IMG/VR virus record: IMGVR_UViG_3300045988_074254
Location: 1-25,388 of that record
Reading direction: 5' to 3' (one strand)
Source of the DNA: a virus
DNA: 25,388 bases
Positions 1,579 to 25,337 of the stretch are shown here, piece after piece. The first letter of the stretch is position 1, and every line of letters begins with the position of its first letter. The position numbers and the translations under genes were made by a program. The notes under the pieces are model-generated. The model ran no database searches. It saw nothing but the letters and a program-made list of their open reading frames with translations, and was not told the DNA's origin.

Positions 1579-1596
1579 TTGTACACTGTACAAAAT
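1579..1596 (-). promoter_or_regulatory. Box A: TTGTACACTGTACAAAAT (TGTACA-C-TGTACA), candidate late operator or promoter element upstream of the holin
   Basis: Identical 18-mer to 25320-25337, in the same orientation. It is intergenic, 41 nt upstream of the holin ATG, and its 3' end overlaps the U-tract of the cassette terminator. Confidence 0.45.
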
Positions 1597-1619
1597 AAAA
1601 GACCGTATTTAACGGCCTT
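1592..1619 (-). terminator. Intrinsic terminator closing the orphan cassette
   Basis: Minus-strand RNA AAGGCCGU-UAAAU-ACGGUCUU forms an 8-bp stem with one G-U pair, followed by UUAUUUU. The stem includes two bases of the stop codon of the 1618-2091 ORF. Confidence 0.6.
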
Positions 1620-2091
1620 ATTGATACATATTAAACATGTCTCGTATATGTGTCTTAATCATTGTTTTTTCTTCATCTGAATCAACGCATCCATGAATCA
1701 TAGTTACGATTTGTTGCATACATTTCATAGTCTTATCTAATTCACGATGAGACTTTTCTAAATCCATATCACCTTTTGTACGCTCATATTCTTCTTTGAA
1801 CGCTTTATATTTTTTCAAATGTTCTGCAAGCTTATAAACAATATCTTCTGTTTCTGGATCATGAATATTATATCCATCATTATCTTCTTTTAATCTTGCG
1901 ACAGTTGAAACTCCATCTTTTCCTATCTCAATTTGATATTTATTTCTCATTGCTTCTATAGTTTCAATGTCTTTGATATTATCTAAAGCTTGAGATAATG
2001 CGTGGAAATAAGATTCTGCATATCCGTATTTCTCTAACATGTTTACTGACTCATGCATTATCTTTTCATTAACTTCCATTGCTTTATGCAT
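1618..2091 (-). CDS. Hypothetical all-helical, Met/His-rich protein (cassette gene 5)
   Basis: The ORF track starts at GTG 2100 with no SD. The ATG at 2091 (MHKAMEV...) is preceded by TAGGTGA at 5 nt and is preferred. No recognisable family; charged and coiled-coil-like in composition. Confidence 0.55.
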   Translation of the reverse strand: MHKAMEVNEKIMHESVNMLEKYGYAESYFHALSQALDNIKDIETIEAMRNKYQIEIGKDGVSTVARLKEDNDGYNIHDPETEDIVYKLAEHLKKYKAFKEEYERTKGDMDLEKSHRELDKTMKCMQQIVTMIHGCVDSDEEKTMIKTHIRDMFNMYQ

Positions 2092-2100
2092 ATTTTTCAC

Positions 2101-2520
2101 CTACGCAATCTTTTTAATGATGATATTTGCATTTTGAACAGATAGATCTAAACCACTGTTATTTGCTAATGCAATTGTATAAGATGCGCCACATGGAACT
2201 TGAATTAGAGTGTCTCCACTTACATTTCCATACGCACTTGCAGTTGCAACAGTATAAATAGATTGTGTTCCACCAATTGCTTCTCCATTTAGCTCAAGCA
2301 CTAGAGAAGCTTGTCCTGGCGTTGCACTCGTAATATCCGCAGTATAAGTTATTTCATAGATACCTGGCTTTGTTAGTGTAAACAATCCACTTCCTAGATC
2401 ATGAGCAAGCCAACCTTTACATGGGCACTGGCAAGATTTGCTTCTTACTCTGTCTGTTGGAAATAATACATTTTGTCCATTCGCTACTGTCTGAACAGCC
2501 GTAGCAATACTATTAATCAT
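2101..2520 (-). CDS. BclA C-terminal-domain-like (C1q/TNF-like jelly-roll) protein without a collagen stalk (cassette gene 4)
   Basis: 139 aa; AGGAGG lies 8 nt upstream of the ATG. Motifs PGIYEITY, LVLELNGEAIGGT and the C-terminal NANIIIKKIA parallel, as I recall it, the Bacillus BclA CTD (GFYKITV, LTIQVNGVPVPGT, SASIIIEKVA). There are no G-X-Y repeats. Confidence 0.6.
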   Translation of the reverse strand: MINSIATAVQTVANGQNVLFPTDRVRSKSCQCPCKGWLAHDLGSGLFTLTKPGIYEITYTADITSATPGQASLVLELNGEAIGGTQSIYTVATASAYGNVSGDTLIQVPCGASYTIALANNSGLDLSVQNANIIIKKIA

Positions 2521-2544
2521 TTCTTTTATCCTCCTATTAAAATA

Positions 2545-2566
2545 GGGATAGCCTTTCGACTATCCC
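2545..2566 (-). terminator. Intra-cassette GNRA-tetraloop hairpin (attenuator or RNA-stability element)
   Basis: Minus-strand RNA GGGAUAGUC-GAAA-GGCUAUCCC forms a 9-bp stem with one G-U pair, followed by UAUUUUAAU and then the SD of the BclA-like gene. Only 25 nt remain before the ATG, so gene 4 must be expressed by read-through. Confidence 0.4.
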
Positions 2567-2607
2567 GTTAAATCCAAAGGCAATTGCCTAATCACATATG
2601 TGCTAGA

Positions 2608-3231
2608 TTATAAGTTGTTGTAGCCATTACATCCACATCCGTTGTTGTAAGCGTAATATGGTGAACATGTAATGTAAGCTGGTTTTGGTGTTGGCTGCAA
2701 AGTATTAATGATATTTGCTGATTGTGCCTGTTGACTTAATTGGAAATTAGCCGTCAATAAATCACGGTCACGATCAGCTAAACGATCACGTAATTCTTGC
2801 ATAGTATTTGCATTGATCAATGCACGTGTTGCTTCACCTTCTGAATGAATTGCTGTTGTAATGTCACAAGTATTTTTGAAACTTTGAGCATTTACATTGT
2901 CAATTGCTCGTTGAGTGTTGCAGCAGCATTCTTGTTGCTGAGCTTGCAAGTTTTGAAGTCCTAACTGATTAGTATAGCGACTTTCTAATACATCACGTTG
3001 AGTTTGACAACCTGTTTGAGATACATTTGTGTTTGTGTTAAAAATGTCTCGTTTAATGAATTCTTCATTCAATAAAGAATCATTTGTTAGGTTTCCGTTG
3101 CCATATCCTCCATATCCAAATAATACGAAGATTAGCAAGATCCAAATCCACCAACCTCCTCCGTCTCCAAAGCCGTCATTTCTTTCGGCTAAGTTGTAAG
3201 TTGGTTGAATTCCCATTCCGTTTTCCATCAT
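2608..3231 (-). CDS. Single-pass membrane protein with Gly/Trp-flanked TM helix, coiled-coil and Cys clusters (cassette gene 3)
   Basis: 207 aa; AAGGAG lies upstream of the ATG. The TM segment is GGGWWIWILLIFVLFGYGGYG (about aa 24-44). A Q/N-rich helical region contains GCQTQ, ECCCNTQ and NTCD. The C-terminus is ITCSPYYAYNNGCGCNGYNNL. Confidence 0.6.
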   Translation of the reverse strand: MMENGMGIQPTYNLAERNDGFGDGGGWWIWILLIFVLFGYGGYGNGNLTNDSLLNEEFIKRDIFNTNTNVSQTGCQTQRDVLESRYTNQLGLQNLQAQQQECCCNTQRAIDNVNAQSFKNTCDITTAIHSEGEATRALINANTMQELRDRLADRDRDLLTANFQLSQQAQSANIINTLQPTPKPAYITCSPYYAYNNGCGCNGYNNL

Positions 3232-3272
3232 ATATGTTCTCCTTTCTTTCTATAATAACGGTTTAGCCGTTG

Positions 3273-3515
3273 TTACCTGATTCCAAACTGTTTTGCCATT
3301 TGTTGCAGTTGTTGCTTTTGTTGTGGATTTAAATTACCCATCATCTGATTTAAAATCATTTGTGGATTTTGGCCACTGTTCATAAGCATTTGAAATTGTT
3401 GAAATGCTTGTGGATTTTTCTGCGACAACATATTCATTAACATTTGTTGGGGATTTCCCATATTCATCATATTCATTGGATTCATATTACCCATAATACT
3501 TTTTAAAGGATTCAT
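3273..3515 (-). CDS. 80-aa Met/Asn/Gln-rich repeat protein (cassette gene 2)
   Basis: The ATG overlaps the upstream stop as ATGA (3512-3515). It has 16 Met, 13 Asn, 17 Gln, six Asn-Pro dipeptides (NPL, NPM, NPQQ, NPQ, NPQ, NPQQ), no Asp or Glu, and five basic residues. Confidence 0.55.
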   Translation of the reverse strand: MNPLKSIMGNMNPMNMMNMGNPQQMLMNMLSQKNPQAFQQFQMLMNSGQNPQMILNQMMGNLNPQQKQQLQQMAKQFGIR

Positions 3516-3961
3516 TTTGTTTGTGCTCCTTTCTTTGGCTGTTCATTAGCTTGTTTTGGTGGTTTGCTTAATGCACATATCAAATCATCTAATTTCTTTT
3601 CGATTCCATTTACACGATTTTCTATACTGTTAGAAGCATCTTCCGTGATTTCTTCAAATTTAAATTTTTTAAATGTTCCATCTAAAGATTTCATATAAAA
3701 AATAGATTTATTGTTATCAAATAAAATCGTTGGTAAATTTGCATTCGCAAAGTTTCTAGCTTCATTCTCATCATTCACCCATTTTCCATTAAAATCAAAA
3801 TTACCTTGTTGTTGTGGTGTAATCTGATTATTAATATTGATAGGTGGAATATTTGCATACTGTTGTACTTGCTGAATTTGTTGATCTATCATTTGTCTTT
3901 GCTGCATCAAACTGTCAATTCGTGCTTGTGCTGGATTATAATTGTTATACATTTCAACCAC
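3512..3961 (-). CDS. Gln-rich hypothetical protein (cassette gene 1)
   Basis: 149 aa; AAGAGGTGG lies upstream of the ATG. The N-terminus is a Q-rich helix (LMQQRQMIDQQIQQVQQ), the middle looks globular (FNGKWVNDENEARNF...IFYMKSLDGTFKKFKFEEI), and the tail is C-terminal coiled-coil plus a basic end. Confidence 0.6.
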   Translation of the reverse strand: MVEMYNNYNPAQARIDSLMQQRQMIDQQIQQVQQYANIPPININNQITPQQQGNFDFNGKWVNDENEARNFANANLPTILFDNNKSIFYMKSLDGTFKKFKFEEITEDASNSIENRVNGIEKKLDDLICALSKPPKQANEQPKKGAQTK

Positions 3962-3978
3962 CTCTTTATTACGCTTTA

Positions 3979-4007
3979 ATTATATGGTTACGCAACAAAT
4001 AATTTAA
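3979..4007 (-). promoter_or_regulatory. Candidate promoter of the orphan cassette
   Basis: A perfect TATAAT (3984-3979) lies 17 nt from the start codon at 3961 and downstream of terminator 4035-4067. The -35 at 17-nt spacing is only TTAAAT (4007-4002). Confidence 0.3.
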
Positions 4008-4034
4008 TACTCGAATAATACTCATAAAATACCC

Positions 4035-4067
4035 AAAATAAAATGAGCAACCATTATAGATTGCTCA
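4035..4067 (-). terminator. Intrinsic terminator after the sigma-region-4-like gene
   Basis: Minus-strand RNA UGAGCAAUC-UAUAAU-GGUUGCUCA forms a 9-bp stem with one G-U pair, followed by UUUUAUUUU. The gene's stop codon lies in the loop. Confidence 0.6.
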
Positions 4068-4287
4068 CATATTTATCGAACATTTTTCTTGCTTTGCATA
4101 CTCTGTTCCTTATGGTTTGTACTTCCATATGTAATGCATCTGCAATTTCGGTACATGACATATCATATACATATCTCATAATCAAAATCTGTTCATATTT
4201 CTTTCTTAATCCAACAGATTTGATAAGTATTAATGCATCATTAGGACGTATCTCTTTTAATCTGTTAGCTTTGTTAATATAAACCAC
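4054..4287 (-). CDS. Stand-alone sigma-70 region-4-like (or YlxM-like) HTH protein
   Basis: 77 aa. KKYEQILIMRYVYDMSCTEIADALHMEVQTIRNRVCKARKMF matches the region 4.2 HTH pattern, and regions 2 and 3 are absent. The GTG start has a poor SD, so the start is uncertain; it may be coupled to the upstream stop 9 nt away. Confidence 0.5.
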   Translation of the reverse strand: MVYINKANRLKEIRPNDALILIKSVGLRKKYEQILIMRYVYDMSCTEIADALHMEVQTIRNRVCKARKMFDKYVSNL

Positions 4288-4295
4288 CGCCTTAA

Positions 4296-4529
4296 TTAAA
4301 TTCGTTGGTTTGAATTAGCTTCGCAAGAACAATTATTCACATGATCATCTTTCCAATAACCACAACAAACAATAGTAGAATAAAGAACAATAATCACTAA
4401 AACCAATACTGTAATAATCGTTCTACTTGTTTTATAGTTTCTATCAATTAATTTTGAGCAAAAACCATAAATGTTATCTACTTTTTCTTCTACATTTTGA
4501 AGTTTCTTGTTTGCATCTTTAATATCCAT
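4296..4529 (-). CDS. XhlA-like membrane protein (N-terminal coiled-coil, C-terminal TM, Cys-rich tail)
   Basis: 77 aa. The coiled-coil is ANKKLQNVEEKVDNI, the TM is TIITVLVLVIIVLYSTIVCCGYW, and the tail is NNCSCE. It lies after the XkdX-like gene, as in PBSX. Confidence 0.45.
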   Translation of the reverse strand: MDIKDANKKLQNVEEKVDNIYGFCSKLIDRNYKTSRTIITVLVLVIIVLYSTIVCCGYWKDDHVNNCSCEANSNQRI

Positions 4530-4812
4530 TTTTATTACGATCCTCCAACGCTTCTACACGTTTAAACAAAGTAGTTATTTGTTCTTTTATTTGAGAAAGC
4601 TCCACTTCCATTGAATTGCTTCCTTTTTTAATTTCTGAAATTGAATCTTTAATATCACTTAAATCTGATTTAATATGTTCTAATTCATTCTTCAAAAATG
4701 CCATATTGGATATTTGCTCTCCATCCATCTTACGTGTGCCACGATTATACGTAATAAATGCAATTACAAGCATGCATGCAGAAATAATAACACTAAGATA
4801 TTCTCCACTCAT
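4519..4812 (-). CDS. Membrane-anchored coiled-coil protein (N-terminal TM)
   Basis: 97 aa. The TM is LSVIISACMLVIAFITY, followed by NRGTRK. The heptad-like region is ELEHIKSDLSDIKDSISEIKK...LSQIKEQITTLFKRVEALE. The SD is AGGTGAT. Confidence 0.5.
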   Translation of the reverse strand: MSGEYLSVIISACMLVIAFITYNRGTRKMDGEQISNMAFLKNELEHIKSDLSDIKDSISEIKKGSNSMEVELSQIKEQITTLFKRVEALEDRNKNGY

Positions 4813-4823
4813 AAAAACATCAC

Positions 4824-4946
4824 CTATTTATTAACGATAGAATTTTTTTGTTCTACACTAATCCATCCAATAGAAGCAAAAATTTCTAAATCATTATTTG
4901 TAAATAAACCTAATTCATAATACGATTTAATTAATTCATAACTCAT
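4824..4946 (-). CDS. xkdX: XkdX-family small phage protein (unlisted ORF)
   Basis: A 40-aa ORF, MSYELIKSYYELGLFTNNDLEIFASIGWISVEQKNSIVNK, fills the 4813-4947 gap. The pattern (YYE.GL.T..D...FV..G.I) fits XkdX as I recall it. GGGGTGA lies upstream of the ATG at 4946. Confidence 0.6.
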   Translation of the reverse strand: MSYELIKSYYELGLFTNNDLEIFASIGWISVEQKNSIVNK

Positions 4947-4947
4947 A

Positions 4948-5292
4948 CTACTTCACCCCATTCATCTGAGCTTTTAACTGTGCGATTTGTAACATTAATT
5001 GTGCGTTAATCTTCTCTTGCTCAGTTGGCACTGCTTTTGGTTCTTCGATTGTTGGTTTGTCTCCTTCTGCAACCTCAATCACTTTACCTTCTACAAATTT
5101 GTAGTTATATCGACCTAATTCATCAACTAATCCTTTTTCTAGATACTGACTTTGAGCATGAGCGTATTTATCACCTTGTCCTTTGTCAATCTCTGTCATA
5201 GTTGACATTTCTTCTTCTGATAAGAAGATTTCTGAATTAATAGATGTGATGTATCCATCTTGTAATGATACATATACTTTATATTCGTTCAT
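4948..5292 (-). CDS. Hypothetical protein in the XkdW position (possible fibre accessory or chaperone)
   Basis: 114 aa, between the receptor-binding fibre and XkdX, with a C-terminal coiled-coil (INAQLMLQIAQLKAQM). The assignment is positional only. Confidence 0.4.
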   Translation of the reverse strand: MNEYKVYVSLQDGYITSINSEIFLSEEEMSTMTEIDKGQGDKYAHAQSQYLEKGLVDELGRYNYKFVEGKVIEVAEGDKPTIEEPKAVPTEQEKINAQLMLQIAQLKAQMNGVK

Positions 5293-5301
5293 AGCTTCCT
5301 C

Positions 5302-6195
5302 CTAATAAATTTCTGCGTCTACACTTATTGTTGTATCGTTTAAATCTACACCAATTGCAGTATTGTTTAATGAGGTATCTACAGGATTTGTATATACACG
5401 TAAGTATTGATTATTTGCATAGCCATTGGTTGTGTTAAACGAGATTTGTTTACCTGTTCCGTTAACTCTAAGAAAAGTTTGCTTGTTAGCCCCTGTAAAG
5501 ATTACATTTCGACTATTTCGCATATAAACGCCCCTTGCAAAAGGAATATATATAGCGTTATTAGCTCCATAGCCGGCTAATGAACTCTCTAGAACTACAT
5601 AGAATCTTTGACACTTCAAAATTTCTTCCGCATAATTTGGAGCAATAAATTCCGTAGCTACTTTACCTTGTTCCAATTTAACCCATTTAAGAGTTATGTT
5701 AGTTCCTCGATTCAAAAAGATTGTAAATGCTTTTGTGCTCTTACTTGTATGTACAACATTTAATCCTTGTTTCAATACAACTTGTGAATTATCATCTGCC
5801 ACCATTGTTACCGTTCCGCTTACAGATGTTACATAGCATGATAATGTAGAATCACCTTCCGTCGCATTTTCTAAATATTGTAGAAAAGTTCCGGTATCTG
5901 TGTATTTGTCATTCTTGACTGTAATACCTCCATTAGCGTTTGACGTAACTGTTACATTCCAAATTTTCCAACGGTCTACTGAATAACCTTGTTTTTCGTA
6001 GCTCGTAGCACCTCTTTGATTGATTTTAAAATCCGGATTAATCAATAAATTCGGATTACTGAATTTTTTTCCTAAATAATCAGCTAGTTGCGATAATAAA
6101 CCTTTTTTCAATCCTGCACCATTGTGTACAGGCAATAAGCTATTATCAGTGAAACTAGGTAATGCGTCTAATTCTGTGACTTGTTTTCCTGGCAT
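5302..6195 (-). CDS. Tail fibre or receptor-binding protein (distal)
   Basis: The preferred start is ATG 6195 (MPGKQVTEL...), with AAGGAGG 6 nt upstream and 1 nt after the upstream stop. The motif NLLINPDFKINQRGATSY...YSVDRWK recurs in Firmicute phage fibre tips. The C-terminal half is beta-rich. Confidence 0.6.
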   Translation of the reverse strand: MPGKQVTELDALPSFTDNSLLPVHNGAGLKKGLLSQLADYLGKKFSNPNLLINPDFKINQRGATSYEKQGYSVDRWKIWNVTVTSNANGGITVKNDKYTDTGTFLQYLENATEGDSTLSCYVTSVSGTVTMVADDNSQVVLKQGLNVVHTSKSTKAFTIFLNRGTNITLKWVKLEQGKVATEFIAPNYAEEILKCQRFYVVLESSLAGYGANNAIYIPFARGVYMRNSRNVIFTGANKQTFLRVNGTGKQISFNTTNGYANNQYLRVYTNPVDTSLNNTAIGVDLNDTTISVDAEIY

Positions 6196-6196
6196 G

Positions 6197-6442
6197 TTAT
6201 TCCTCCTTAATTTTATACTTCCAATCCGTTCCGACTTCTCCACTTGCTACTTCGTAAGACCAGTCAGCTAGGATTGTATTTCCTTTTTCATCCACTAATT
6301 CTTGAGCGCTTGTTGCGTTCAAATTTGTAGTAAAGTGGTTATTCATAACCATTTGATTCAATGCATTATGTGATGTGGTTACAGACTTTATTTTCGAGAC
6401 AAGCCACTGAATAGAAGCTTTGTCTTTGAATACGAAAGCCAT
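6197..6442 (-). CDS. Small fibre-associated protein (chimeric N- and C-terminal motifs)
   Basis: 81 aa. Its N-terminus resembles that of 6446-7054, and its C-terminus carries the ILADW.YEV / DWKYK motif also found at the end of 7700-8608. Confidence 0.5.
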   Translation of the reverse strand: MAFVFKDKASIQWLVSKIKSVTTSHNALNQMVMNNHFTTNLNATSAQELVDEKGNTILADWSYEVASGEVGTDWKYKIKEE

Positions 6443-6445
6443 ATG

Positions 6446-7054
6446 CTAACCCCACATTGTGTTTAAATCATTTGTAGTAATCGCAGTTAATTCTGATTTC
6501 TTAACATACGCCGATAAATCAATGTCTGTATTACCAATCTTTTCAAATGTTTTAGTTTCTGAAAGCCAAATATACTCATCATAAATATCTTGAGTTCCAT
6601 GTGAATGTGCAACCAAATAAATAACACCATTTGAACCTGTAGCAGGTAAGCTTGTTACCTTTTCATATCTAATAGATGTGATATTACCGACTGCCGAATT
6701 AATCAACGATTGTACTTGTGATTGCGTTTGATACCCTTTAGCCGTGATAATTGACTCAACGCTCGTTGCCGACTGATATCCACTGTCATTCGTTAATTGC
6801 GATGTCTTTGTCGGTACTGTAACATCTACGGCTTTTGAGCTTGGCGTTAACTTCGTACCATTTACCTTTACCGACTCAATCACGTTCACTTGAGCACCAT
6901 TTGCGATACCACTTAATTTTTGCTTTTCTGCGCTTGTGTAGTCATTTGTCGATAAGCCTTTACCACTTACAACGTCAACTTTTCCACCTAATGCAGATTT
7001 AATCTTACTGATTAAGAGCGTCAATCCACTCTTATCTAAATATTCAATAGCCAT
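6446..7054 (-). CDS. Tail fibre protein
   Basis: 202 aa. Fibre-type motifs are YLDKSGLTLLISKIK, GKGLSTNDYTSAEKQKLSGI and TSQLTNDSGYQS. Confidence 0.65.
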   Translation of the reverse strand: MAIEYLDKSGLTLLISKIKSALGGKVDVVSGKGLSTNDYTSAEKQKLSGIANGAQVNVIESVKVNGTKLTPSSKAVDVTVPTKTSQLTNDSGYQSATSVESIITAKGYQTQSQVQSLINSAVGNITSIRYEKVTSLPATGSNGVIYLVAHSHGTQDIYDEYIWLSETKTFEKIGNTDIDLSAYVKKSELTAITTNDLNTMWG

Positions 7055-7065
7055 TCTTTTTCCTC

Positions 7066-7395
7066 CTATAGACTATTCCATAATTCATCTAGTTCGATTG
7101 TTGATACAGATGTTACAGAACCTTCTGCCATAGCCCCTACATCTTCCGGAGTGTATACCGGTCTTGTTTCTGCTTTTGCCCATTTCGGAACTGTTGGGTC
7201 TATTTCTTCAACTTCACCAATGATTTCATTTCCATTTAATTTAGGTTTGTTTCTGAGCTTGTTATAGTCGGATGTGCCTCCTCCATATTGTTCCTTGACT
7301 TCTAAATTCAAATCATCACTATTTCCATCTACTTCTATATCAATCTGCTCTGAGTCATCCTGAACATCCAACGTAACTTGATTCATTAAAATCAT
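7066..7395 (-). CDS. Tail fibre-associated protein
   Basis: 109 aa. Motifs DYNKLRNKPKLNGNEIIG and VPKWAKAETRPVYTPEDVGA are typical of Firmicute phage fibres. It has an ATGA overlap with the upstream gene. Confidence 0.5.
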   Translation of the reverse strand: MILMNQVTLDVQDDSEQIDIEVDGNSDDLNLEVKEQYGGGTSDYNKLRNKPKLNGNEIIGEVEEIDPTVPKWAKAETRPVYTPEDVGAMAEGSVTSVSTIELDELWNSL

Positions 7396-7691
7396 GTAAT
7401 CACTTCCTTATCAAGGATTCTATGTACTGTAGTTGTAGCTATTGAGCTTGCTATCGCTAACCCATCTTGTGTTATAGCTCTTAATTGTACGTTAACTATC
7501 CCTTTCTTGAATTTAAGTGTTTCTTCTTGTGTTAATGTGATTCTAATTTCATCATCTTCAATTTCAATTTGAGACATATCTTTTCTTAAAAGATGTCCAT
7601 CTTGCTCAAATGTAATGTAAACACTTTTTAATTCACTTAAATCTATATTGTTAACATTTATAACAATTGTCGGTGTTGTTCCTTGTCTCAT
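7392..7691 (-). CDS. Small Ig-like baseplate or fibre module (QG[DT]T type)
   Basis: 99 aa, beta-rich, with N-terminal MRQGTTPTIVINV. Its size and motif match the paralog-like ORF at 8611-8904. Confidence 0.45.
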   Translation of the reverse strand: MRQGTTPTIVINVNNIDLSELKSVYITFEQDGHLLRKDMSQIEIEDDEIRITLTQEETLKFKKGIVNVQLRAITQDGLAIASSIATTTVHRILDKEVIT

Positions 7692-7699
7692 AATCTCAC

Positions 7700-8608
7700 C
7701 TATTCAACTTTATATCGCCAATCTGCTTGCAATATGTTATTTTCTTCATCTATCAGTTCAGAATCTATATCAATTAATAAAGGTGTATAAAAATGGTTAT
7801 CTAATATCATTTCCATAATATTAGAAATCTGTATTCTTATCGCATTTCCAGCTGTTGAATAAATTTTTCCGTCATATCCTATACGAATATCCGTTATTTC
7901 AGTATTGGCATCAGGCAAGCTTCCTGAATCGAATAATTGATCTACTCTAGATTTCAGAACATTTAAATCCTCAAAGCGTATGCCATACTTGGAAATTAAA
8001 TCATTTAATTCTTCAATCCCTGAATCTTTTATATTTGTAATTGTTGTTACACCTGTATCACGTGCTTCTCTTATATCTTTCACTGCTTGATTGCACTTTT
8101 CGGACACTAGTAAAAGCATCATCGCAATCTCATCTCGTTCATTTTGATCTAATGAAGCAGATTTTGAATATATACTTTCAGGAGTAACAACTCTTGATAG
8201 TGTAGTAGCCCATCTTTTTTGAATGTTTCCATCATCATCTACAATAACCGCACTCACCACAAAATAAAGATCACCTTTATTTTTTAATGCGTTATTAGGT
8301 ACGATCCAAGCAAATTCACACGTATCATAGTAAGTAACTTTATCTGTAGTTATACTTGACCCAATAATGTTTTTTGAATCTCGATAATTAACTCGTATTA
8401 AAGCATCTTCCATTTTAAATATTTCTGAAACCGTATTTATAACCCTAAACCGAATATATTTAGAATCTTTATCGTATTGAACACCAAATACGTTTTCAGG
8501 ATCAGGGATATAAATCTCACGAGTACGTGCATCAATAACAAGTGTCTCATTATCTACACCTGCATATGTATCTAAGTCAAAGCTTAAAGTTGCATTTAAT
8601 TTAGCCAT
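7700..8608 (-). CDS. Baseplate or fibre structural protein
   Basis: 302 aa in the baseplate module. It has a central coiled-coil and ends in NNILQADWRYKVE. Confidence 0.45.
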   Translation of the reverse strand: MAKLNATLSFDLDTYAGVDNETLVIDARTREIYIPDPENVFGVQYDKDSKYIRFRVINTVSEIFKMEDALIRVNYRDSKNIIGSSITTDKVTYYDTCEFAWIVPNNALKNKGDLYFVVSAVIVDDDGNIQKRWATTLSRVVTPESIYSKSASLDQNERDEIAMMLLLVSEKCNQAVKDIREARDTGVTTITNIKDSGIEELNDLISKYGIRFEDLNVLKSRVDQLFDSGSLPDANTEITDIRIGYDGKIYSTAGNAIRIQISNIMEMILDNHFYTPLLIDIDSELIDEENNILQADWRYKVE

Positions 8609-8610
8609 TT

Positions 8611-8904: not shown

Positions 8905-8919
8905 GTATGCTCCTTCCTT

Positions 8920-9957: not shown

Positions 9958-9960
9958 ACA

Positions 9961-10557: not shown

Positions 10558-10558
10558 G

Positions 10559-12148: not shown

Positions 12149-12150
12149 CT

Positions 12151-16768: not shown

Positions 16769-16780
16769 TTTTAGTACCTC

Positions 16781-17400: not shown

Positions 17401-17411
17401 ATAACCTCACA

Positions 17412-17431
17412 AAGAGGGGGTTGCCCCTCTT
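17412..17431 (-). other. GC-rich stem-loop immediately after the major tail protein gene
   Basis: Minus-strand RNA AAGAGGGG-CAAC-CCCCUCUU forms an 8-bp stem that begins in the stop codon. It is followed by UGUGAGGUUAU, which contains the SD of the chaperone. The U-tract is incomplete, so it is more likely a partial terminator or mRNA stabiliser. Confidence 0.4.
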
Positions 17432-18074: not shown

Positions 18075-18079
18075 AGTTT

Positions 18080-18490
18080 TTATCCTTTCAAATATTTTTC
18101 GATTAAACTTGGCAGTTCCTTGATTGCGTTTGTTTCTCCATCTTTCCAGTGCTTAAATGCACGTGTACGTCTAGGAGAATTCCATAAATTATGTCCGTTT
18201 TCTAGTAAATGAGTTAATGAGTATTCGTGGCCACTCGCATAAATAACACCGCGTGTATGTGCTAATTCACGTTCTATCTTATATGTTATAGACCTTTTAT
18301 ATTTGCCCTTTCTGCGTGTGTTTCTATGATCTACATTGGCCTTAGCTTTAATAATATCTTTAGAATCTTTTGTAGTTTCTTCTACTGCTCTATCAATCTG
18401 AGCCAAAGAATGCTCTTTATATTCTTGAATAATCTTTCTGATTTCAGGCCCAAGCTGCGACATATCGCAATATACATCATTGACGGCCAA
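18080..18490 (-). CDS. HK97 gp10-family head-tail connector or neck protein
   Basis: 136 aa. GKYKRSITYKI...GVIYASGHEYSLTHLLENGH matches the gp10-family pattern. The TTG start has GGTGA 6 nt upstream. Confidence 0.55.
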   Translation of the reverse strand: MAVNDVYCDMSQLGPEIRKIIQEYKEHSLAQIDRAVEETTKDSKDIIKAKANVDHRNTRRKGKYKRSITYKIERELAHTRGVIYASGHEYSLTHLLENGHNLWNSPRRTRAFKHWKDGETNAIKELPSLIEKYLKG

Positions 18491-18815
18491 CTAATGTCAC
18501 CGCCCATTCTGTACAGTGTACTTTTTGAGCTTTTATATCTTCATCTGTGATGGTTTGGTATGGTATTTCTAATTCATCAAACATACCTTCGACTTTAGCT
18601 TCTAATTCAAAGTCTTTTTGATCAGTCACTAATCTATATATGTAAGTTCCAATCTTACAATACGTTCTATTGTCTGCAAAGTAATTATTTGTATAATCCA
18701 ATGCATAATTCCCATAGGGGGTATGGGGTTTTGATTTGAAACTGCCATATACAAATTGTCCTTCACCTAAAAGTTCAGTGAATTTAGCTACAATCTGTTG
18801 TCTTACTGTTTCCAT
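18477..18815 (-). CDS. Head-tail connector component (possible tail completion or terminator protein)
   Basis: 112 aa within the connector block. The assignment rests on position and size only. Confidence 0.4.
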   Translation of the reverse strand: METVRQQIVAKFTELLGEGQFVYGSFKSKPHTPYGNYALDYTNNYFADNRTYCKIGTYIYRLVTDQKDFELEAKVEGMFDELEIPYQTITDEDIKAQKVHCTEWAVTLVGRQ

Positions 18816-19138
18816 TCTCCAGCATCCTGTTGAACATATAGTTCAATCGTATCTCCGGATGGGAATGTACGATAAACCGCATACTTTTTGTCGTTGTATT
18901 TCACTGTCGTTTCATCATTGTAATCAATAGTAGGAATAACAAGCTTATACGCTAACTGTATGCCTGCCTGGTAGGCTTCATTAAATTCTTTTGAATAAAT
19001 TCCACCGACACGGCAAAATACTTCCTTCTCAGTTTCATTAACACGTTCCACACCATCTGCATCCACATATCTTTCTTTTTCAATCAGATATGCCACATCG
19101 TAGTAAAGATTATTCTCACGAGTATATTCATATGCCAT
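18803..19138 (-). CDS. Head closure or head-tail adaptor protein
   Basis: 111 aa. The pattern ...EKEVFCRVGGIYSKEFNEAYQAG....KYNDKKYAVYR resembles the head-tail joining family. It is the second gene after the capsid. Confidence 0.6.
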   Translation of the reverse strand: MAYEYTRENNLYYDVAYLIEKERYVDADGVERVNETEKEVFCRVGGIYSKEFNEAYQAGIQLAYKLVIPTIDYNDETTVKYNDKKYAVYRTFPSGDTIELYVQQDAGEWKQ

Positions 19139-19139
19139 A

Positions 19140-19442
19140 CTATTTCACCTTCTTATGAGATTTATCTGTCATAAGAATCTGACGTAAATCCTCATATGTT
19201 TTAGCCATTGATTCTTTATTTGAAGCATCCGTTGTACCAAATTTTGACATTACATATGCTATTACCGCTACTACAATTTCATCTTCTAAATCATCTTCAT
19301 CAAATAAGATATTTAATCTATCCAAATCGTATAAACATGCATTGATATACGTTTTGATTTCATCATCATAAGCATGTGATTTAGCTCTTGTAGCAGCAGT
19401 TCTAACACGTTCTAGAAGGCTTTCAGAAATATTGAACGCCAT
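19140..19442 (-). CDS. gp6-like head-tail connector (DNA packaging) protein
   Basis: 100 aa, helical, first gene after the capsid. The SD is AGGTGAT. Confidence 0.6.
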   Translation of the reverse strand: MAFNISESLLERVRTAATRAKSHAYDDEIKTYINACLYDLDRLNILFDEDDLEDEIVVAVIAYVMSKFGTTDASNKESMAKTYEDLRQILMTDKSHKKVK

Positions 19443-19452
19443 TATCTATCAC

Positions 19453-19617
19453 CTAAGCTTTCTTCGCACTGCTTTTTCGAGTAGTTTTCTTAGGCTCATC
19501 ATCTAATAAAATAGGTTCATCATCAGTTCCAACAGGTTCTTCATCATTTAATGATTGTGTTCCTGTTTGACTTTCATCTTTTGTAACATCTCCATTGCTT
19601 AAGCTACTTTTTTTTTT
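19453..19617 (-). other. Putative -1 frame C-terminal extension of the major capsid protein, reached through an A10 run
   Basis: An A10 run (19608-19617) covers codons L-K-K-K of the capsid gene. In the -1 frame, 51 sense codons follow the run (SSLSNGDVTKDESQTGTQSLNDEEPVGTDDEPILLDDEPKKTTRKSSAKKA), ending at TAG 19455-19453. This frame has no ATG, GTG or TTG. Confidence 0.4.
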
Positions 19618-20915
19618 AACAAGAAGATGTATTGAGGATCTAATACTTTACCATCATTGATAACCAATGCTTGAGTTACTTCCTCATTCTTTTCATAATC
19701 CCAGTACTTCTTCACACCAAACTGCATATTTGAGTTGATCGCATAGGCTTCTTTTCCAACCCAATACATTCCGAAATATTCACCGTTTTTTGCTTCATCA
19801 AAATCTTTGAATGTATCATTTTCAACGAAATTAACTGTTCTAGCTTTGAATGTTGCACGTTCTGCACCATCAATAGGATTATATGTTTCTGCATAAACAG
19901 GACGATTATTATCGTCGGCCAACGTTTTAATGTTTGCTTCATATGTAGCAGGAGTCATTACAAACTCTGGTTTTAATTTACGCATTGATAAAGGAATCTT
20001 TGCGAACAATTTTGTTTGCCATGATTTCCAATCTTTCATTTCTGCTTCCGTAAATTCAATAATATGATCGGCTTTAATACGACTACCTGATACTTTATTA
20101 GCTTCTGTTAAGATGCCTTCACACTCATTGTTTGAAGATTCACCAGTTAAAATTTCACGATCCATAGCTTCCAAATAAGCTTCTACAATAACTTCTGCTA
20201 ATTTAGTTTCGAATGCATTTACAGTTAATACAGTTTGTAGTAATGTACGTGCTAAACGAATTTCACCAATCAAATATCCAAATTGTACAAATTCTGTAAC
20301 AGAACCAGCCTTTTGACGATCAGATACTGTTGTTTCAGTAATACGTTTAAATGTAGCCTTGAATGAACCGATAGGATATTTAACACCACCACGGAAATTT
20401 GTATGTAATACTGCATTGTATAAGTAACCACGTGATTTACTTAATTCAGTCATTACTTTCTGAACAATTGTTTCAGGAATTAAAATACCTAGATCAGCTG
20501 CTACACCCGCTTCTGCACTACGTTGTCTTAAGATTTCTGACTGTTTTCCTTTTTGAACGAATTCCATGAATGCACTACGATACTCCATATCGTCTTCCAT
20601 TCCTTTTTTACGTTCTGATAAGTTTGTAGGCATTGATGGATGTGCTTTACTACGAGCTTGTTGCTGTTGTGTAATAAAAGTACCTTCTTCATCTACAATA
20701 GATTTTGCCATAGTATCTAAGAACGCTTGACGTTGTGCTACCTTTCCTTTTAACTCTTTGTCACGTTTTTGCAAGATATCAAATTCTGCCTGTAACATTT
20801 CCAAGTTTGTATTAGGATCGTTTTTGTTGACCTCATCTTGAATTTCTTTAAATCTTTTTTGAATCTGTTCGTGATTCATTGCATTGAATGCTGCTAGTTG
20901 TTGCTCTGTAAACAT
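19599..20915 (-). CDS. Major capsid protein, HK97 family
   Basis: 438 aa, directly after the prohead protease. The N-terminal ~100 aa form a coiled-coil delta-like domain, followed by an HK97-type core. The start codon overlaps the protease stop (TAATG). Confidence 0.9.
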   Translation of the reverse strand: MFTEQQLAAFNAMNHEQIQKRFKEIQDEVNKNDPNTNLEMLQAEFDILQKRDKELKGKVAQRQAFLDTMAKSIVDEEGTFITQQQQARSKAHPSMPTNLSERKKGMEDDMEYRSAFMEFVQKGKQSEILRQRSAEAGVAADLGILIPETIVQKVMTELSKSRGYLYNAVLHTNFRGGVKYPIGSFKATFKRITETTVSDRQKAGSVTEFVQFGYLIGEIRLARTLLQTVLTVNAFETKLAEVIVEAYLEAMDREILTGESSNNECEGILTEANKVSGSRIKADHIIEFTEAEMKDWKSWQTKLFAKIPLSMRKLKPEFVMTPATYEANIKTLADDNNRPVYAETYNPIDGAERATFKARTVNFVENDTFKDFDEAKNGEYFGMYWVGKEAYAINSNMQFGVKKYWDYEKNEEVTQALVINDGKVLDPQYIFLLKKKVA

Positions 20916-21526
20916 TAATTAATAGCCTCCTTAATCTGCAACAACAAACTCAGTCTTTCTCGTTTCTTTTCATTTTCTTTTTTAGTCCGTTCTTCATCCA
21001 TTAAAGACTTTGCCCTTGCTTCAATAGATGTTTGATCATTTGCAGGAATCGACACTGCCGAAACATCATAAATTTTTGATACTTTACGTGTTGTCCACAT
21101 CTTTTTAGATCTATCATATGATTCCTCATCCACCATGTACCTCCATGACATCTGAGTAACCATTCCTGCCTGAATACTGTCGTACAAACGTTTTGCAGCT
21201 TCTGTTCTTCCTAAATCTGCTGCAACAAACAATCCGTGTTCATCTACTTCAACAATAAGTGAACCATTGCTTGTACGTGCATATACCATTCCTCCATGAT
21301 CAAATTGGAAGATGATATCACTCATATCAGCGTTGTCCAAACTTGAACGCTCAATCAACTCATATACATCATTACCTTCGTAATCTCGATAAAGAACATA
21401 AGGTTCAAATGTTGTAGCATATCCTTCAACATAATATTGAGTATCAATTCGTTTGTTTTCCGTCACCGGGTTCATTTGGAACGGGATCGAGCGCATTTGG
21501 ATTTTGCTGTGGTTCGGTTTCCCCAT
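20915..21526 (-). CDS. Prohead protease, HK97 (S78) family
   Basis: 203 aa. VEGYATTFEPY...IIFQFDHGG motifs are present, and the C-terminal tail is charged coiled-coil. AAGGAGG lies upstream of ATG 21526, inside the portal 3' end (83-nt overlap). Confidence 0.85.
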   Translation of the reverse strand: MGKPNHSKIQMRSIPFQMNPVTENKRIDTQYYVEGYATTFEPYVLYRDYEGNDVYELIERSSLDNADMSDIIFQFDHGGMVYARTSNGSLIVEVDEHGLFVAADLGRTEAAKRLYDSIQAGMVTQMSWRYMVDEESYDRSKKMWTTRKVSKIYDVSAVSIPANDQTSIEARAKSLMDEERTKKENEKKRERLSLLLQIKEAIN

Positions 21527-22727
21527 TGTAACTAATTCCTCCTTGATTTGATTTAGTTACCTGGATATATTCACCTCGAATAAAACGTTTCTTACCTTCA
21601 TCATCTGGTAAAGGCGCTTTGTTCATGATATTTAATGCCCCATTCGTATCAATCATTCCTCTATCGAACATTTGAGTCGCAACATTTAATTTTGTTTGTG
21701 TCGAATCATACTGTAAACGATCACTTGTAAGAATGATTTCACTACCATTCATAATCTGATTTACGGAATATAACATTCCACTCAACACTTCTCCAACTTC
21801 AATAAAGAATGGTTCAATAATTGATTCATAAAATGCATTCCATTCATCAGGTTTATATTTATTTTGTAAAATAGCTTCACTAATTCCAAAATAGCTATAT
21901 ACACTATTTTCAATTGCCTGCTTCTGCTTGGCATCCACTAATAGTGGTTTACTTTCAATCGGTTTTACTTCATCAAATCGATTGTCGACAAGGAATACAC
22001 CTGTTTCATTCTTGTTCAGGTTGTTTCTCAAAATCATGTTTTGTTGTTCTTTATAATCCTCATCATCGTCAATTGGTGTTGAAATTTTAGCTAAGAATCG
22101 AACAATAGAACTAGATTTGATTGCATTGATTGCTCCTTCTTCCTGAGCAAGCATCAATTTAGCTGTTGTATCAAATGCATCATTAATTTCACCAAAGTAA
22201 TCATTTTTATACTGCATCTGCCTTAGATGTCCTACTTTGCTATATTCAATCAATTTTGTTTCGCCATAGATGAAATTAAAATAAATATAAACTACACCAT
22301 TGATTTCTTTTAACTGACACTGACTTGGTACTGCGGGCCATAATCCCTTTATCATTCCATATTCATCTTCAATTGGAATAATGAAAGCATTGTTTTCTGT
22401 AAAATAGATAGTTGCCAATCTTTTATAAAATTGACTAGCTGTCATATAAGGATTTGGCTTTTTCTTAACCAAATAGTTATATATCTTGCTTTTGTAGTCT
22501 TTGTTTGTCAGTTCAGGTGAAGCTTTTCCACATGATGTGGCAATTCGATTGATACATGCTCTGCAAAGTCCAATCTCATATATTCCACCATCATATGATG
22601 AATACACTGGTGAATATCCACCTAAGCTTGCAAACATTGAATGTAATTGATTTTGTTTAGGTGCTGGCTTATTTAGTCCTAACAGACTTCCTAGCAAACC
22701 AAATCTTTTTCTTCTGCTTTTAGCCAC
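21444..22727 (-). CDS. Portal protein, HK97 family
   Basis: 427 aa, immediately after TerL. The GTG start shares the G of the TerL TAG, and the SD is AAGGAAGGTGA. Confidence 0.85.
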   Translation of the reverse strand: MAKSRRKRFGLLGSLLGLNKPAPKQNQLHSMFASLGGYSPVYSSYDGGIYEIGLCRACINRIATSCGKASPELTNKDYKSKIYNYLVKKKPNPYMTASQFYKRLATIYFTENNAFIIPIEDEYGMIKGLWPAVPSQCQLKEINGVVYIYFNFIYGETKLIEYSKVGHLRQMQYKNDYFGEINDAFDTTAKLMLAQEEGAINAIKSSSIVRFLAKISTPIDDDEDYKEQQNMILRNNLNKNETGVFLVDNRFDEVKPIESKPLLVDAKQKQAIENSVYSYFGISEAILQNKYKPDEWNAFYESIIEPFFIEVGEVLSGMLYSVNQIMNGSEIILTSDRLQYDSTQTKLNVATQMFDRGMIDTNGALNIMNKAPLPDDEGKKRFIRGEYIQVTKSNQGGISYNGETEPQQNPNALDPVPNEPGDGKQTN

Positions 22728-24385
22728 TAATTCACCTTCCTTTTCTTGTTTTCAAGGCGGTACTTGAATGTATCCCACCATTTTTGTCTTACTGTATATG
22801 CATCAATAACAGATGCATATCCATCAATATGTTTTCTTGGATCAGTTTTAATCATGCGGACACGATTGTCCTCCGCAACTTTCTTTAATGCCACACTAGA
22901 CATATGTGCTTGTAATAATCCATTTGTTCCTGTATGAACAAATCCATCTCTTACATACCCCGTAAATTCATTAATAACCGGTGTAAGGTTAGTACCCTGA
23001 ATTACATCATCCATCTTGTATCCATATTTCTTCATATCATCCACAAGATACTGAGCCGAATAACGGTCATATCCAACGACCACGCAATAAATCTTGTATT
23101 TCTTACGTAGCATTTCAAACCATTCCGTTACATCTTCATACCGTACAAAGTTTTCCCCACTTGGACTTAAATATCCCAATTGAATAAATCTTGTATATGG
23201 TATTTTGTCTCTTTCTTCTAGCTCCTTGATTTTTAATGTTGGAAGCCAAAAATGAGTAAATATGTAATCCTGTTCTTGAATTCGTATAACAACAGATGCG
23301 GCTGTTAAATCGGTTGTTTGTGACAAATCAATTCCACCAACTGCATATGTATGTGCAAAATCTTCAAATCTAAGTTCTTCACCTTTAACTTTGTTAATAT
23401 CTTCTGCACTAAATAACGCTTCTGTTGAATTCTGTTTGATATTCGCATATTTTGTTATGAATTCAGCCTTATATGTCGGTGAGCTATGTGCTTTTAAAAT
23501 TTCATTCTGCAAATATTCATAAGAAACCGATATTCCAAGGTTTGGCATTGCTTTTCTCAATTCAATAGGATCATCCCATTTTTGAATATCATCAATCATA
23601 TAAAAGAAAGGCAACATTTGTTTTTCATCAGACGTACCAAGTAAAACAGATGTTCCACGAACAAATAATTCATCATATAATCCTTCATCAATATAGTTTG
23701 CGGTACTTACAGGAATATAAAGTGGATCAGGTCTCGCACCACCTGCCGACAACATAACGTTGTACATTTTCATACCAGCTTCACCTTCCCATGCTGCAAA
23801 CTCATCAAAGATTGTCAAATATGGGTTGAATCCATCTGATTTTTTAGACGCAAAGGCAATTGGCTCCCATCTACAGTTGTTCTGTTTCATGTAGATATCT
23901 GTTCTACGTTTTTTTACTCTTAGACTCAACGCTTTAGAGTGTTCCATCATTTGATACAGAACATTGTAAATGATCTGCGCTTGTTTTAACTTTGGCGCTA
24001 TATTGTATATCTGCATACCTGCTTCATCAGATGTAAATCCAACATCAAGTTCAATACCTGCACAAAGAAATGATTTTCCTTGTTTTCGGCCCATGACCGT
24101 AGGTATTTCACGAAACTGCCTTTTTCCATTCTTATCAACAAGTCCGAATATGCACGCAATATAGTATTTTTGCCAAGGCTCAAGCTTCACTTTTGTTGTT
24201 TTTCCTTCTACGTGGTGACAAAACGTTTCAATAAACGCTATATGCATTTCCGCTTTTTTCTCATCGTAGAAGAAATCTCCATTTGCTAAACCTCTTTCAA
24301 CATATTGAAGATTAAGCTTTATCCACTTACCGACTACATCTTCACCCGATTTAATACGTTCTTTATAAATATCTAGATATTTCAT
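22727..24385 (-). CDS. terL: Terminase large subunit
   Basis: 552 aa. It has a Walker-A-like RKQGKS, Walker B LTIFDEFAAW, and C-terminal nuclease Asp motifs (VGGIDLSQTTD, VVGYDRYSA, HIDGYASVIDA). It has an ATGA overlap with terS. Confidence 0.92.
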   Translation of the reverse strand: MKYLDIYKERIKSGEDVVGKWIKLNLQYVERGLANGDFFYDEKKAEMHIAFIETFCHHVEGKTTKVKLEPWQKYYIACIFGLVDKNGKRQFREIPTVMGRKQGKSFLCAGIELDVGFTSDEAGMQIYNIAPKLKQAQIIYNVLYQMMEHSKALSLRVKKRRTDIYMKQNNCRWEPIAFASKKSDGFNPYLTIFDEFAAWEGEAGMKMYNVMLSAGGARPDPLYIPVSTANYIDEGLYDELFVRGTSVLLGTSDEKQMLPFFYMIDDIQKWDDPIELRKAMPNLGISVSYEYLQNEILKAHSSPTYKAEFITKYANIKQNSTEALFSAEDINKVKGEELRFEDFAHTYAVGGIDLSQTTDLTAASVVIRIQEQDYIFTHFWLPTLKIKELEERDKIPYTRFIQLGYLSPSGENFVRYEDVTEWFEMLRKKYKIYCVVVGYDRYSAQYLVDDMKKYGYKMDDVIQGTNLTPVINEFTGYVRDGFVHTGTNGLLQAHMSSVALKKVAEDNRVRMIKTDPRKHIDGYASVIDAYTVRQKWWDTFKYRLENKKRKVN

Positions 24386-24756
24386 TTAAATCTGCTCATG
24401 AACTCATCCAATTCATCACCTTTTTTTCCGGATACTTCTGTCGTTTTCGATAGTGAAGTAGGTGACAAGCCAAGTTCTTTGCAGTATTTCATGATCTGAT
24501 CACGTAATTGAACGGTAATAATGTAGTATGGCGAGCGCGATAAATTCGTTGCACCGCCCTTGTTCGTATATTCAACAACCATCTGTAGTGATTTGTAGCC
24601 ATTTGCTTTACTTGAATCTCTCCATTGCTTCATTGTTGAATCATATTGGGCCAAGGCATCTGCAAGTGAATCAACCGCAACCGAATATTCAGGAGAAAAT
24701 GTGCCTAAATTCTCTAGTTGTGAATTGATTCTTTTTTTCCATGCTCCTTTTTGCAT
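24382..24756 (-). CDS. terS: Terminase small subunit (P27 family)
   Basis: 124 aa. The pattern NKGGATNLSRSPYYIITVQLRDQIMKYCKELGLSPTSLSK fits the family. GGGAGGA lies 7 nt upstream of the ATG. Confidence 0.8.
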   Translation of the reverse strand: MQKGAWKKRINSQLENLGTFSPEYSVAVDSLADALAQYDSTMKQWRDSSKANGYKSLQMVVEYTNKGGATNLSRSPYYIITVQLRDQIMKYCKELGLSPTSLSKTTEVSGKKGDELDEFMSRFK

Positions 24757-25157
24757 TCATCATCCTCCCTTCCACATCCTATAAGCATTCCGTTTTCATC
24801 AAATTCAAAAGATGGTTTACGTTTGGAATGTTCTTCAGCATGGCATAAGTCACACAACGCTTCCAAATTAGAATCGCCAAATAGAATGTGTATATCTCTA
24901 TAGTTGTCCTGGTCAATGTGCACTTTGTGGTGCACGCAAGTCGACCTGGTATAGATACCTTTTTTCAAACATCTTTCACAAAGTGGATGTGCCTTCCTAT
25001 ACGCTTTGCTTTTCTTTTCCCAAGCCTTGCTTGAGTAAAATTTTCTAGCATAATTTCTAGCACCTGTTTTTGTTGCTTCTGAACCATAATATTTTTTCAT
25101 ATCGCTACATTCAAAGTTTTGACCATAACTACAGTTAACAGATTTAAAGGACGACAA
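24714..25157 (-). CDS. HNH endonuclease (terminase-associated)
   Basis: CERCLKKG...VHHKVH...NLEALCDLCHAEEH forms a Cys4 plus H-N-H motif. The start is uncertain: TTG 25157 lies one codon after an in-frame TAG, ATG 25100 is the alternative, and neither has an SD. Confidence 0.8.
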   Translation of the reverse strand: MSSFKSVNCSYGQNFECSDMKKYYGSEATKTGARNYARKFYSSKAWEKKSKAYRKAHPLCERCLKKGIYTRSTCVHHKVHIDQDNYRDIHILFGDSNLEALCDLCHAEEHSKRKPSFEFDENGMLIGCGREDDECKKEHGKKESIHN

Positions 25158-25192
25158 AAACTAACAGTAAATACTTTGAATGCAGTGATATG

Positions 25193-25224
25193 AAAAAAGA
25201 CCCATGTTTCCACAGATCTTTTTT
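25193..25224 (-). terminator. Leader intrinsic terminator between box B and the first late gene
   Basis: Minus-strand RNA AGAUCUGUG-GAAA-CAUGGGUCU forms a 9-bp stem with three G-U pairs, followed by UUUUUU. It pairs markedly worse on the plus strand. Only 35 nt separate it from the HNH ORF. Confidence 0.45.
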
Positions 25225-25319
25225 CAACGGGCACTAAAATGAAACAATCCAAGAACTACCTTGTTTGTTCTAGAAGATGTTTTCCAATCTTCACGACTAC
25301 AGAATATCACGGTTTTTCC

Positions 25320-25337
25320 TTGTACACTGTACAAAAT
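25320..25337 (-). promoter_or_regulatory. Box B: TTGTACACTGTACAAAAT, candidate late operator or promoter element upstream of the packaging operon
   Basis: Identical 18-mer to box A (1579-1596). It is intergenic, ~160 nt upstream of the HNH ORF. Confidence 0.45.

Follow-up and report, generated by a model that had tools for sequence, protein, structure and literature searches.

What does an 18-bp sequence do that stands, letter for letter, before both the packaging genes and the lysis genes of the same phage? The question is raised by IMG/VR virus record IMGVR_UViG_3300045988_074254, positions 1 to 25,388 of which form the stretch analysed here (the window, 25,388 nucleotides in length). The sequence at issue, referred to below as the box, is probably the recognition site of a phage-encoded late activator, in which role it would replace the -35 element at two late promoters. 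This reading draws on the sequence anatomy of the two sites, on their conservation and distribution and on the presence of candidate regulators, from which binding, activation and the positions of the transcription starts are predicted.

The box and its promoter context

The exact 18-mer TTGTACACTGTACAAAAT (plus strand) is found at 1579-1596 (box A) and again at 25320-25337 (box B). All genes of the window lie on the minus strand, on which the box reads ATTTTGTACAGTGTACAA; its core, TTGTACA-G-TGTACAA, is a 15-bp palindrome of 7-1-7 form that may also be read as two tandem 7-nt units, TGTACAG and TGTACAA. Both copies are intergenic and in the same orientation. In minus-strand order, box B is followed by the genes for an HNH endonuclease, terS, terL, the portal, an S78 protease, the capsid, head-tail and tail proteins, after which come an accessory cassette, box A, an r1t-type holin and an Amidase_2 endolysin. 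The elements on which the argument turns are these:

25320-25337, minus strand: box B, the proposed activator site of the packaging and structural late promoter, at about -43 to -26.
25301-25309, minus strand: the site B -10 element, TG-extended (TGaTATTCT), 13 nt after box B, with a predicted start near 25294.
1579-1596, minus strand: box A, at which an activator is proposed to act on the lysis promoter; the holin ATG follows 40 nt later.
1560-1565, minus strand: the site A -10 element, TATTAT (TATCAT in many relatives), 13 nt after box A.
18506-18523, in the orientation opposite to the genes' boxes: a partial copy, with a 15/18 match, inside head-tail coding sequence.

At both sites a TAnnnT hexamer lies 13 nt past the 3' end of the box and 21 nt from the first TGTACA. 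A sigma-A -35 hexamer was sought 16-18 nt upstream of both -10 elements, where only CAGTGT or a similar sequence, not a -35, is found. Since no sigma-A -35 occupies that position, the box itself is taken to span about -43 to -26, with its centre near -33. The -10 element of site A is without a TG extension and is followed, after 7 nt, by the ribosome-binding site GGAGG (1552-1548) and then by the holin ATG at 1538. On its other side box A adjoins the last of three intrinsic terminators on the coding strand of the cassette (4068-4043, 2566-2545 and 1619-1599), the T-tract of which overlaps the 5' ATTTT of the box.

Four matches to the box pattern with up to three mismatches are present in the window, against 0.02 expected, these being the two exact copies, a palindromic self-match and the 15/18 copy at 18506-18523. 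No other exact direct repeat in the window is as long as the box (the runner-up has 15 nt), and an exact repeat of 18 nt or more was reached in 14 of 300 Markov-1 simulated windows (about 5%). Intergenic sequence makes up about 4.4% of the window and both boxes fall within it, such that the joint chance of the repeat and of this placement is, by our own estimate, about 1e-4. The partial copy is probably not functional, judged by its context: it has no -10 element on the coding strand, the coding stretch around it is highly conserved, and one relative has a substitution in the copy.

Much of what the first-pass annotation had described at these sites is thereby upheld, namely the identity, coordinates, intergenic position and shared orientation of the two 18-mers, the placement of the second between the cassette terminator and the holin, and the dyad core, now specified as a palindrome of 7-1-7 form that stands ahead of the -10-like hexamers, where a -35 would be expected and is missing. 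The distance of 19-22 nt that it gave to the nearest -10 was imprecise, the spacing from the 3' end of the box being 13 nt at both sites. A third, inverted copy does exist as it had reported, at 15/18, with no sign that it is functional. Two features had escaped it, namely that the right end of the window is the cos end and that a conserved terminator-like hairpin separates box B from HNH.

A third, independent context for the box comes from L144, a 12-kb contig binned as Waltera intestinalis. This contig carries the same cassette (the small cassette protein p77, considered below, is 83% identical) and a lysis region in which the holin is a different one, a gene is added and the endolysin has 585 aa. 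It keeps an identical 23-nt island, CTTTTATTTTGTACAGTGTACAA, around which the flanks have diverged, the terminator hairpin included, and which is among the longest exact matches between this cassette and that of the window. The layout in L144, of terminator, box, 13 nt, TAAAAT, 7 nt, GGGAGG and ATG, follows the same order as site A. In this regard, its spacing settles which reading of the -10 element is right.

Distribution and co-variation of the box

The box is exact in 20 of 20 loci picked by protein identity (10 via terS and 10 via the holin), and box A is exact in 39 of 40 viral contigs retrieved by an unrelated 27-nt handle lying 1 kb away. Of the 60 sequences thus sampled with no regard to the box itself, 59 have it unchanged, and their flanks are only slightly more variable. 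At least 12 IMG/VR contigs contain exactly two copies, never more; apart from the partial copy at 18506-18523, no copy with up to three mismatches occurs in the early regions, lysogeny module and host flanks examined.

Beyond the phage, the exact 18-mer has nine occurrences in 185,579 species genomes (one genome per species), two of which are on the one contig of this phage, and those outside this phage and L144 stand in isolated, unrelated contexts and are probably due to chance. Within the host-species genome the exact 18-mer is confined to the prophage. The box is absent upstream of the holin in 80 of 80 other phages with related holins (49-77% identical), which led us to discard the idea that the box goes with the holin family. 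What emerges from this distribution is that the box is a lineage-specific element, neither a host regulon site nor a feature of the holin family; a scan for the motif beyond regulatory positions, which had been put forward earlier as a check, gave two copies per genome and no sign of a host motif.

Searches of 50,697 phage genomes, by megablast with the window and by tblastn with p155 (the candidate regulator introduced below), gave no match, and a search of the same genomes with p77 gave two weak matches only, such that the phage has no annotated relative there. The phage nevertheless ranks among the prophages most often assembled from a human-gut bacterium of the Erysipelotrichaceae, with 4,294 indexed blocks of public assemblies, for the most part from human-gut metagenomes, that contain its exact terS protein. 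The single species genome with both boxes is labelled uncultured Solobacterium sp.

Two distant kinds of phage, L259/L260 and L263, share a layout consisting of an ltr-like gene, accessory genes, a long intergenic region and HNH. The regulator of L259/L260 is 32% identical to p155, and 20 kb of sequence contain GAGTTTACA at two places only, each of them upstream of HNH. Of these, the proximal one in L259 is a different 7-1-7 palindrome, GTTTACA-C-TGTCAAC (GTTTACACTGTCAAC), placed 13 nt before cGTGATATATT. It keeps the symmetry of an inverted repeat and loses the direct repeat, which favours the inverted-repeat reading of the box over one of two direct TGTACA hexamers. In L263, the regulator of which is 28% identical to p155, gGTGATATAAA precedes HNH, and the stretch at the position of the box reads GTCTGAAAATATCTGGAG, with no TGTACA box. 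The gGTGATAT motif of site B recurs upstream of HNH in both L259 and L263. Each of the three regulators has its own recognition helix. If regulator and site form a cognate pair, the two would be expected to change together within a framework that is kept, and this is the pattern seen here, with the box exchanged, the regulator diverged and the surroundings conserved.

Candidate readers and a proposed late switch

A late regulator of RinA, ArpU or LtrC type had been presumed to be encoded off the window to the right. The location has stood and the type has not, since the protein found there, p155, belongs with DUF1492/LtrB. Its gene (155 aa) lies at the end of the early region, beyond the right end of the window and 4.4-8.3 kb upstream of box B, and is present in every locus that extends far enough, its position having been measured in 16 loci; accessory genes, a reverse-strand Ard module and the cos site separate it from box B. 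Scans of Pfam, PHROG and NCBIfam gave only DUF1492 (the LtrB family; 22.4 bits against a cut-off of 21.5 bits) and phrog_36, annotated as 'transcriptional regulator', with no Mor/C family among the matches.

An AlphaFold model of p155 (mean predicted local distance difference test, pLDDT, 86.5) has a body of three-helix coiled coil and a C-terminal, three-helix helix-turn-helix (HTH) domain that resembles sigma region 4. The model has no sigma-2 fold and no significant match in the PDB, and p155 was rejected as a full sigma factor in view of its coiled coil and HTH. As modelled, this architecture suits a dimer bound to a palindrome. A variant with only 77% identity still has the same recognition helix. 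The family is tiny, with nine representatives among 1.84 billion proteins, and the contigs of a homologue that is 53% identical (P0007) are too short to reach packaging genes.

The remaining features needed for the argument are the genes that the two promoters would serve, the terminator that precedes box A and a second candidate reader, p77:

22727-25100, minus strand: HNH endonuclease, terS and terL genes, by Pfam matches; the first genes after box B, with the HNH ATG at 25100.
143-1538, minus strand: lysis genes, by Pfam matches, comprising the r1t-type holin (1317-1538), a small open reading frame (ORF) and the Amidase_2 endolysin (143-1219).
1599-1619, minus strand: last cassette terminator, from a terminator scan, with a hairpin energy of -10.1 kcal/mol.
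4054-4287, minus strand: p77, a 77-aa free-standing sigma region-4 domain protein of the extracytoplasmic function (ECF) type.

The p77 protein matches Pfam Sigma70_r4_2 (E=2e-10) and the sigma-4 domain of SigW (E=6.5e-5); it also matches phrog_79 and, across the HTH only, Pfam Phage_antitermQ at 22.5 bits, which is below the 26-bit cut-off. Its gene is intact in 12 of 12 cassette loci, L144 included, and is followed by terminator 4068-4043. Being encoded within the late operon, p77 is not the initial trigger of that operon. We infer from gene position, dimer-like architecture and family membership that p155 is a better candidate than p77 for reading the box. L251, an unrelated phage, has a sigma-4-like gene immediately ahead of the holin. 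Two further candidates were set aside: p68, a protein with a Fis-type HTH encoded about 600 nt upstream of box B and near cos, which half of the relatives lack and which, in relatives with an exact box, is either missing or no more than 39-57% identical; and the immunity repressor, the switch-region operators of a relative being AATGTATTAT-type repeats and not TGTACA.

The switch would then work as follows. A dimer of p155 would bind the 15-bp palindrome TTGTACA-N-TGTACAA and, with its centre near -33, would recruit or position the host RNA polymerase on the neighbouring -10 element. Promoter B, with its start near 25294, would drive HNH, terS, terL and the head and tail genes; promoter A, with its start near 1553 and past the last cassette terminator, would restart transcription of the holin and endolysin genes. 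The location of the second box beyond the cassette terminators would keep packaging and lysis under one switch.

A precedent is provided by the Ltr superfamily of Gram-positive phages, which takes in RinA, ArpU, LtrA/Sigma70_r4, LtrB/DUF1492 and LtrC (PMC3753634, PMC3152322, PMC13123087). Ltr proteins, those of the DUF1492 family included, act through upstream repeats to switch on terS promoters, and packaging as well as lysis is under their control (PMC3753634, PMC13123087). In published sites there are 2-4 direct repeats, each of 7 nt or 18 bp, which occupy positions from -32 to -107 or beyond (PMC3753634, PMC13123087, PMC3152322). What the present system has in common with these is a small phage protein with a C-terminal HTH like sigma region 4 (p155 matching DUF1492/LtrB), a packaging-gene promoter with a -10 and no -35 (here TAnnnT in three contexts, with CAGTGT at -35) and, as proposed here, one regulator over packaging, morphogenesis and lysis. 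It differs in having two promoters with boxes rather than one late transcript, and a terminator-like leader downstream of the box; differences in the placing of the regulator gene and in the form of the site are taken up below.

The C protein of phage Mu offers a second comparison, in that it acts at several late promoters, Plys included, which have a -10 without a -35 and carry the same dyad site overlapping the -35 position (PMC2582627, PMC4461284). The resemblance, which is functional only, extends from the repeated dyad site at late promoters, that for lysis among them, to the reader, since Mu C/Mor sites are bound by a small dimeric HTH activator and a dimeric p155 is proposed here. By contrast, no sequence-family relation was found, the host is Gram-positive, the centre of the site is near -33 rather than about -43, and there are two promoters rather than four. 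In T4, with its MotA box and sigma appropriation, and in lambda, with cII, a phage factor likewise reads an element centred near -30 to -35 in place of the -35 hexamer; the protein families are different ones, and no partner like AsiA is seen here. By analogy, then, the system appears to belong functionally with the Ltr activators and to work much like Mu C.

The general principle is already established, and the surprise for a specialist is moderate. The proposed wiring, in which one activator and one 15-bp palindrome at two promoters would tie packaging to lysis despite the insertion of a terminator-rich cassette, would extend the Ltr paradigm in three ways, through a remote regulator gene, a palindrome over the -35 and a split late unit. 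It would also offer a compact, phage-specific and inducible pair of promoter and activator for gut bacteria that are poorly tractable.

The leader, the physical end and other possible functions of the box

Between box B and the HNH gene lies a leader with two features of its own:

25100-25294, minus strand: late-operon leader, untranslated, with three hairpins followed by a stem of variable loop, up to the HNH ATG.
25193-25218, minus strand: terminator-like RNA hairpin, with its stem at 25218-25199 followed by T6, between box B and HNH.

The leader has 194 nt from the predicted start to the HNH ATG and is near-invariant in relatives. It is non-coding, because indels in relatives break any frame, and a small ORF within it was rejected for this reason. 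The fold has a z-score of -3.4, and Rfam contains no family that matches in the window or the upstream locus. Pairing in the hairpin stem is kept through CG/UG/UA, GU/GC/AU and UG/CG changes, and the frequent G-U pairs indicate an RNA structure on the late-transcript strand. The hairpin may serve to attenuate transcription, to stabilise the RNA or as a target of antitermination. Immediately ahead of the HNH start, at 25108-25182 (minus strand), a conserved inverted repeat of 9-10 bp, CATTCAAAG...CTTTGAATG, encloses a highly variable segment of about 55 nt, which is inverted in 1 of 47 sequences (L009 against its closest relative, L127).

The leader brings in another possible function for the box, as the loading site of a Q-like processive antiterminator, at which a polymerase from promoter B would be modified such that it reads through the leader terminator. 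Lambda Q, with pR' and tR', provides the model, and the likeness holds at site B only, where the leader beyond the element at the promoter carries a terminator-like hairpin, comparable to the intrinsic terminator of lambda. The conservation of the hairpin and U-tract through pair-preserving changes is in accord with such a function, as are the order in L259 (box, extended -10, hairpin with T-tract, HNH), the weak Q-like HTH matches of p77 and the dependence of RinA on sequence that lies over 155 bp ahead of the mapped terS start and is separated from it by a terminator (PMC3152322). Against this, box A has no terminator downstream, L263 has no hairpin between promoter and HNH, and membership of the Q family is established for no protein here; moreover, a terminator-proof polymerase coming from promoter B would make a second box after the cassette terminators needless. 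Loading of an antiterminator is for these reasons unlikely to be what the box is for. There are two neighbouring ideas. In the first, a DUF1492/Ltr-type protein would act at least partly by making the polymerase that starts at the box resistant to termination, past an attenuator of hairpin and U-tract, as a Q-like mechanism of Firmicutes phages; this is unlikely, and if true could also account for the long-standing oddity that RinA depends on DNA so far ahead of the mapped terS start, beyond a terminator. In the second, a related variant, p77 would stand in for region 4 of the host sigma factor at the box.

There is likewise little likelihood that the box is an operator at which a phage or host repressor keeps the late and lysis promoters shut in the lysogen. 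Palindromes of 15 bp that overlap promoters are typical of operators, the unrelated phage L065 has the same 15-mer beside a strong sigma-A promoter, and the TG-extended -10 of site B might fire without a -35. Yet the basal activity that a repressor would have to hold down should be low, given that both sites are without a -35 and site A without TG; the immunity region of the relative, as noted, uses other repeats, and the confinement of the exact 18-mer to the prophage in the host-species genome speaks against it as well.

That the box has no function, as a recombination linker at module boundaries or a chance repeat, is quite improbable. The frequency of 18-nt exact repeats in simulated windows would allow for it, and the homology with L144 breaks on both sides of the island, as it would at a module joint; set against these are the intergenic, co-oriented and palindromic nature of the boxes, the same -10 spacing in three contexts and the presence of a different palindrome at the same promoter position in divergent relatives.

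Box B is also close to the physical end of the phage DNA. Contigs L089 and L127 independently begin at GTT(C/T)AAAAAAACTGGG, and in L123 an Illumina adapter is fused to exactly that starting base, with the right end of the window about 4 nt inside this point (window 25380-25388; L002:9330-9375). From these contig starts and the adapter junction it follows that the right end of the window corresponds to the physical left (cos) end of the virion DNA, box B being about 59 nt from it. The GC-rich GGGGAACGGCGTGGGGA just before that end is the probable cos site, and the region is homologous in the distant phage L263. Conserved inverted and direct repeats, TTTCAACA / TGTTGAAA, are found outside the window, upstream of cos (L002:9160-9230), some 150-200 nt before it, and L263 has at the equivalent place four to five repeats of the CGCTAT-ATATAAAT type; both sets may be terminase-binding or regulatory. 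The nearness of box B to this end and the high conservation of the whole stretch from cos to leader notwithstanding, it is very improbable that box B is a packaging signal (a cosB-like site for the small terminase or HNH) and box A coincidental or vestigial, since box A, 23.7 kb away, would go unexplained while being kept in L144 with promoter-like spacing to a -10 and ribosome-binding site, and since the homologous cos region of L263, without the TGTACA box, argues against the box being part of cos.

Recognition of the box by a late activator, the reading preferred here, has to be weighed against several points that count the other way. The lineage is about 95-99% identical, such that conservation of the box is statistically indistinct from that of its flanks, and the single exception among the 40 contigs, L153, has a C-to-T change in box A. 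The -10 hexamers are moderate matches only, and the conserved hairpin between promoter B and HNH would stop a part of the transcripts. With respect to the reader, the Pfam score of p155 is borderline; its gene is remote from the box, in contrast to the ltr genes described in the literature, which lie immediately upstream of terS or the packaging module and have their target repeats just distal to them; and p77 is a second candidate, the two proteins being indistinguishable as readers of the box. Finally, the single 15-bp palindrome over the -35 differs from the 2-4 direct repeats, situated further upstream, of the published Ltr sites.

The accessory cassette that separates the tail genes from box A encodes small membrane proteins, p77, glutamine-rich proteins, a 207-aa membrane protein, a BclA_C-domain protein and a 160-aa protein. 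Its content between 1618 and 3961 (minus strand) is odd, with two small proteins rich in Gln, Asn and Met and a 139-aa protein that has a BclA C-terminal (C1q/TNF-like) domain. Right after the terminator that trails p77 there is a sigma-A-like promoter, TTAAAT-17-TATAAT, with a perfect -10 (3979-4007, minus strand), which could express the glutamine-rich and BclA_C genes independently, in the manner of a moron. A 27-nt intergenic stretch at 2569-2595 (minus strand) is identical in the window phage and L144 and contains a perfect 12-bp palindrome, AGGCAATTGCCT, just upstream of terminator 2566-2545 and the BclA_C gene; this stretch may serve as a further binding site for a protein.

In relatives the phage is found as a prophage beside tRNA-Asp and the host genes radC, mreC and polA. 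A strong promoter of sigma-A type, TTGACA-17-TATTAT (91-119, minus strand), lies 24 nt past the endolysin stop and points out of the prophage, and in prophage contigs tRNA-Asp(GTC) lies about 200 nt beyond it (L011:11599-11674). Because this tRNA gene adjoins that end of the prophage, the attachment site is probably located there. In the replication region of another relative (L140:4745-4800), three tandem iterons of 24 nt, CTGTCCAATGTACAAAAGACAAAT, probably mark the origin.

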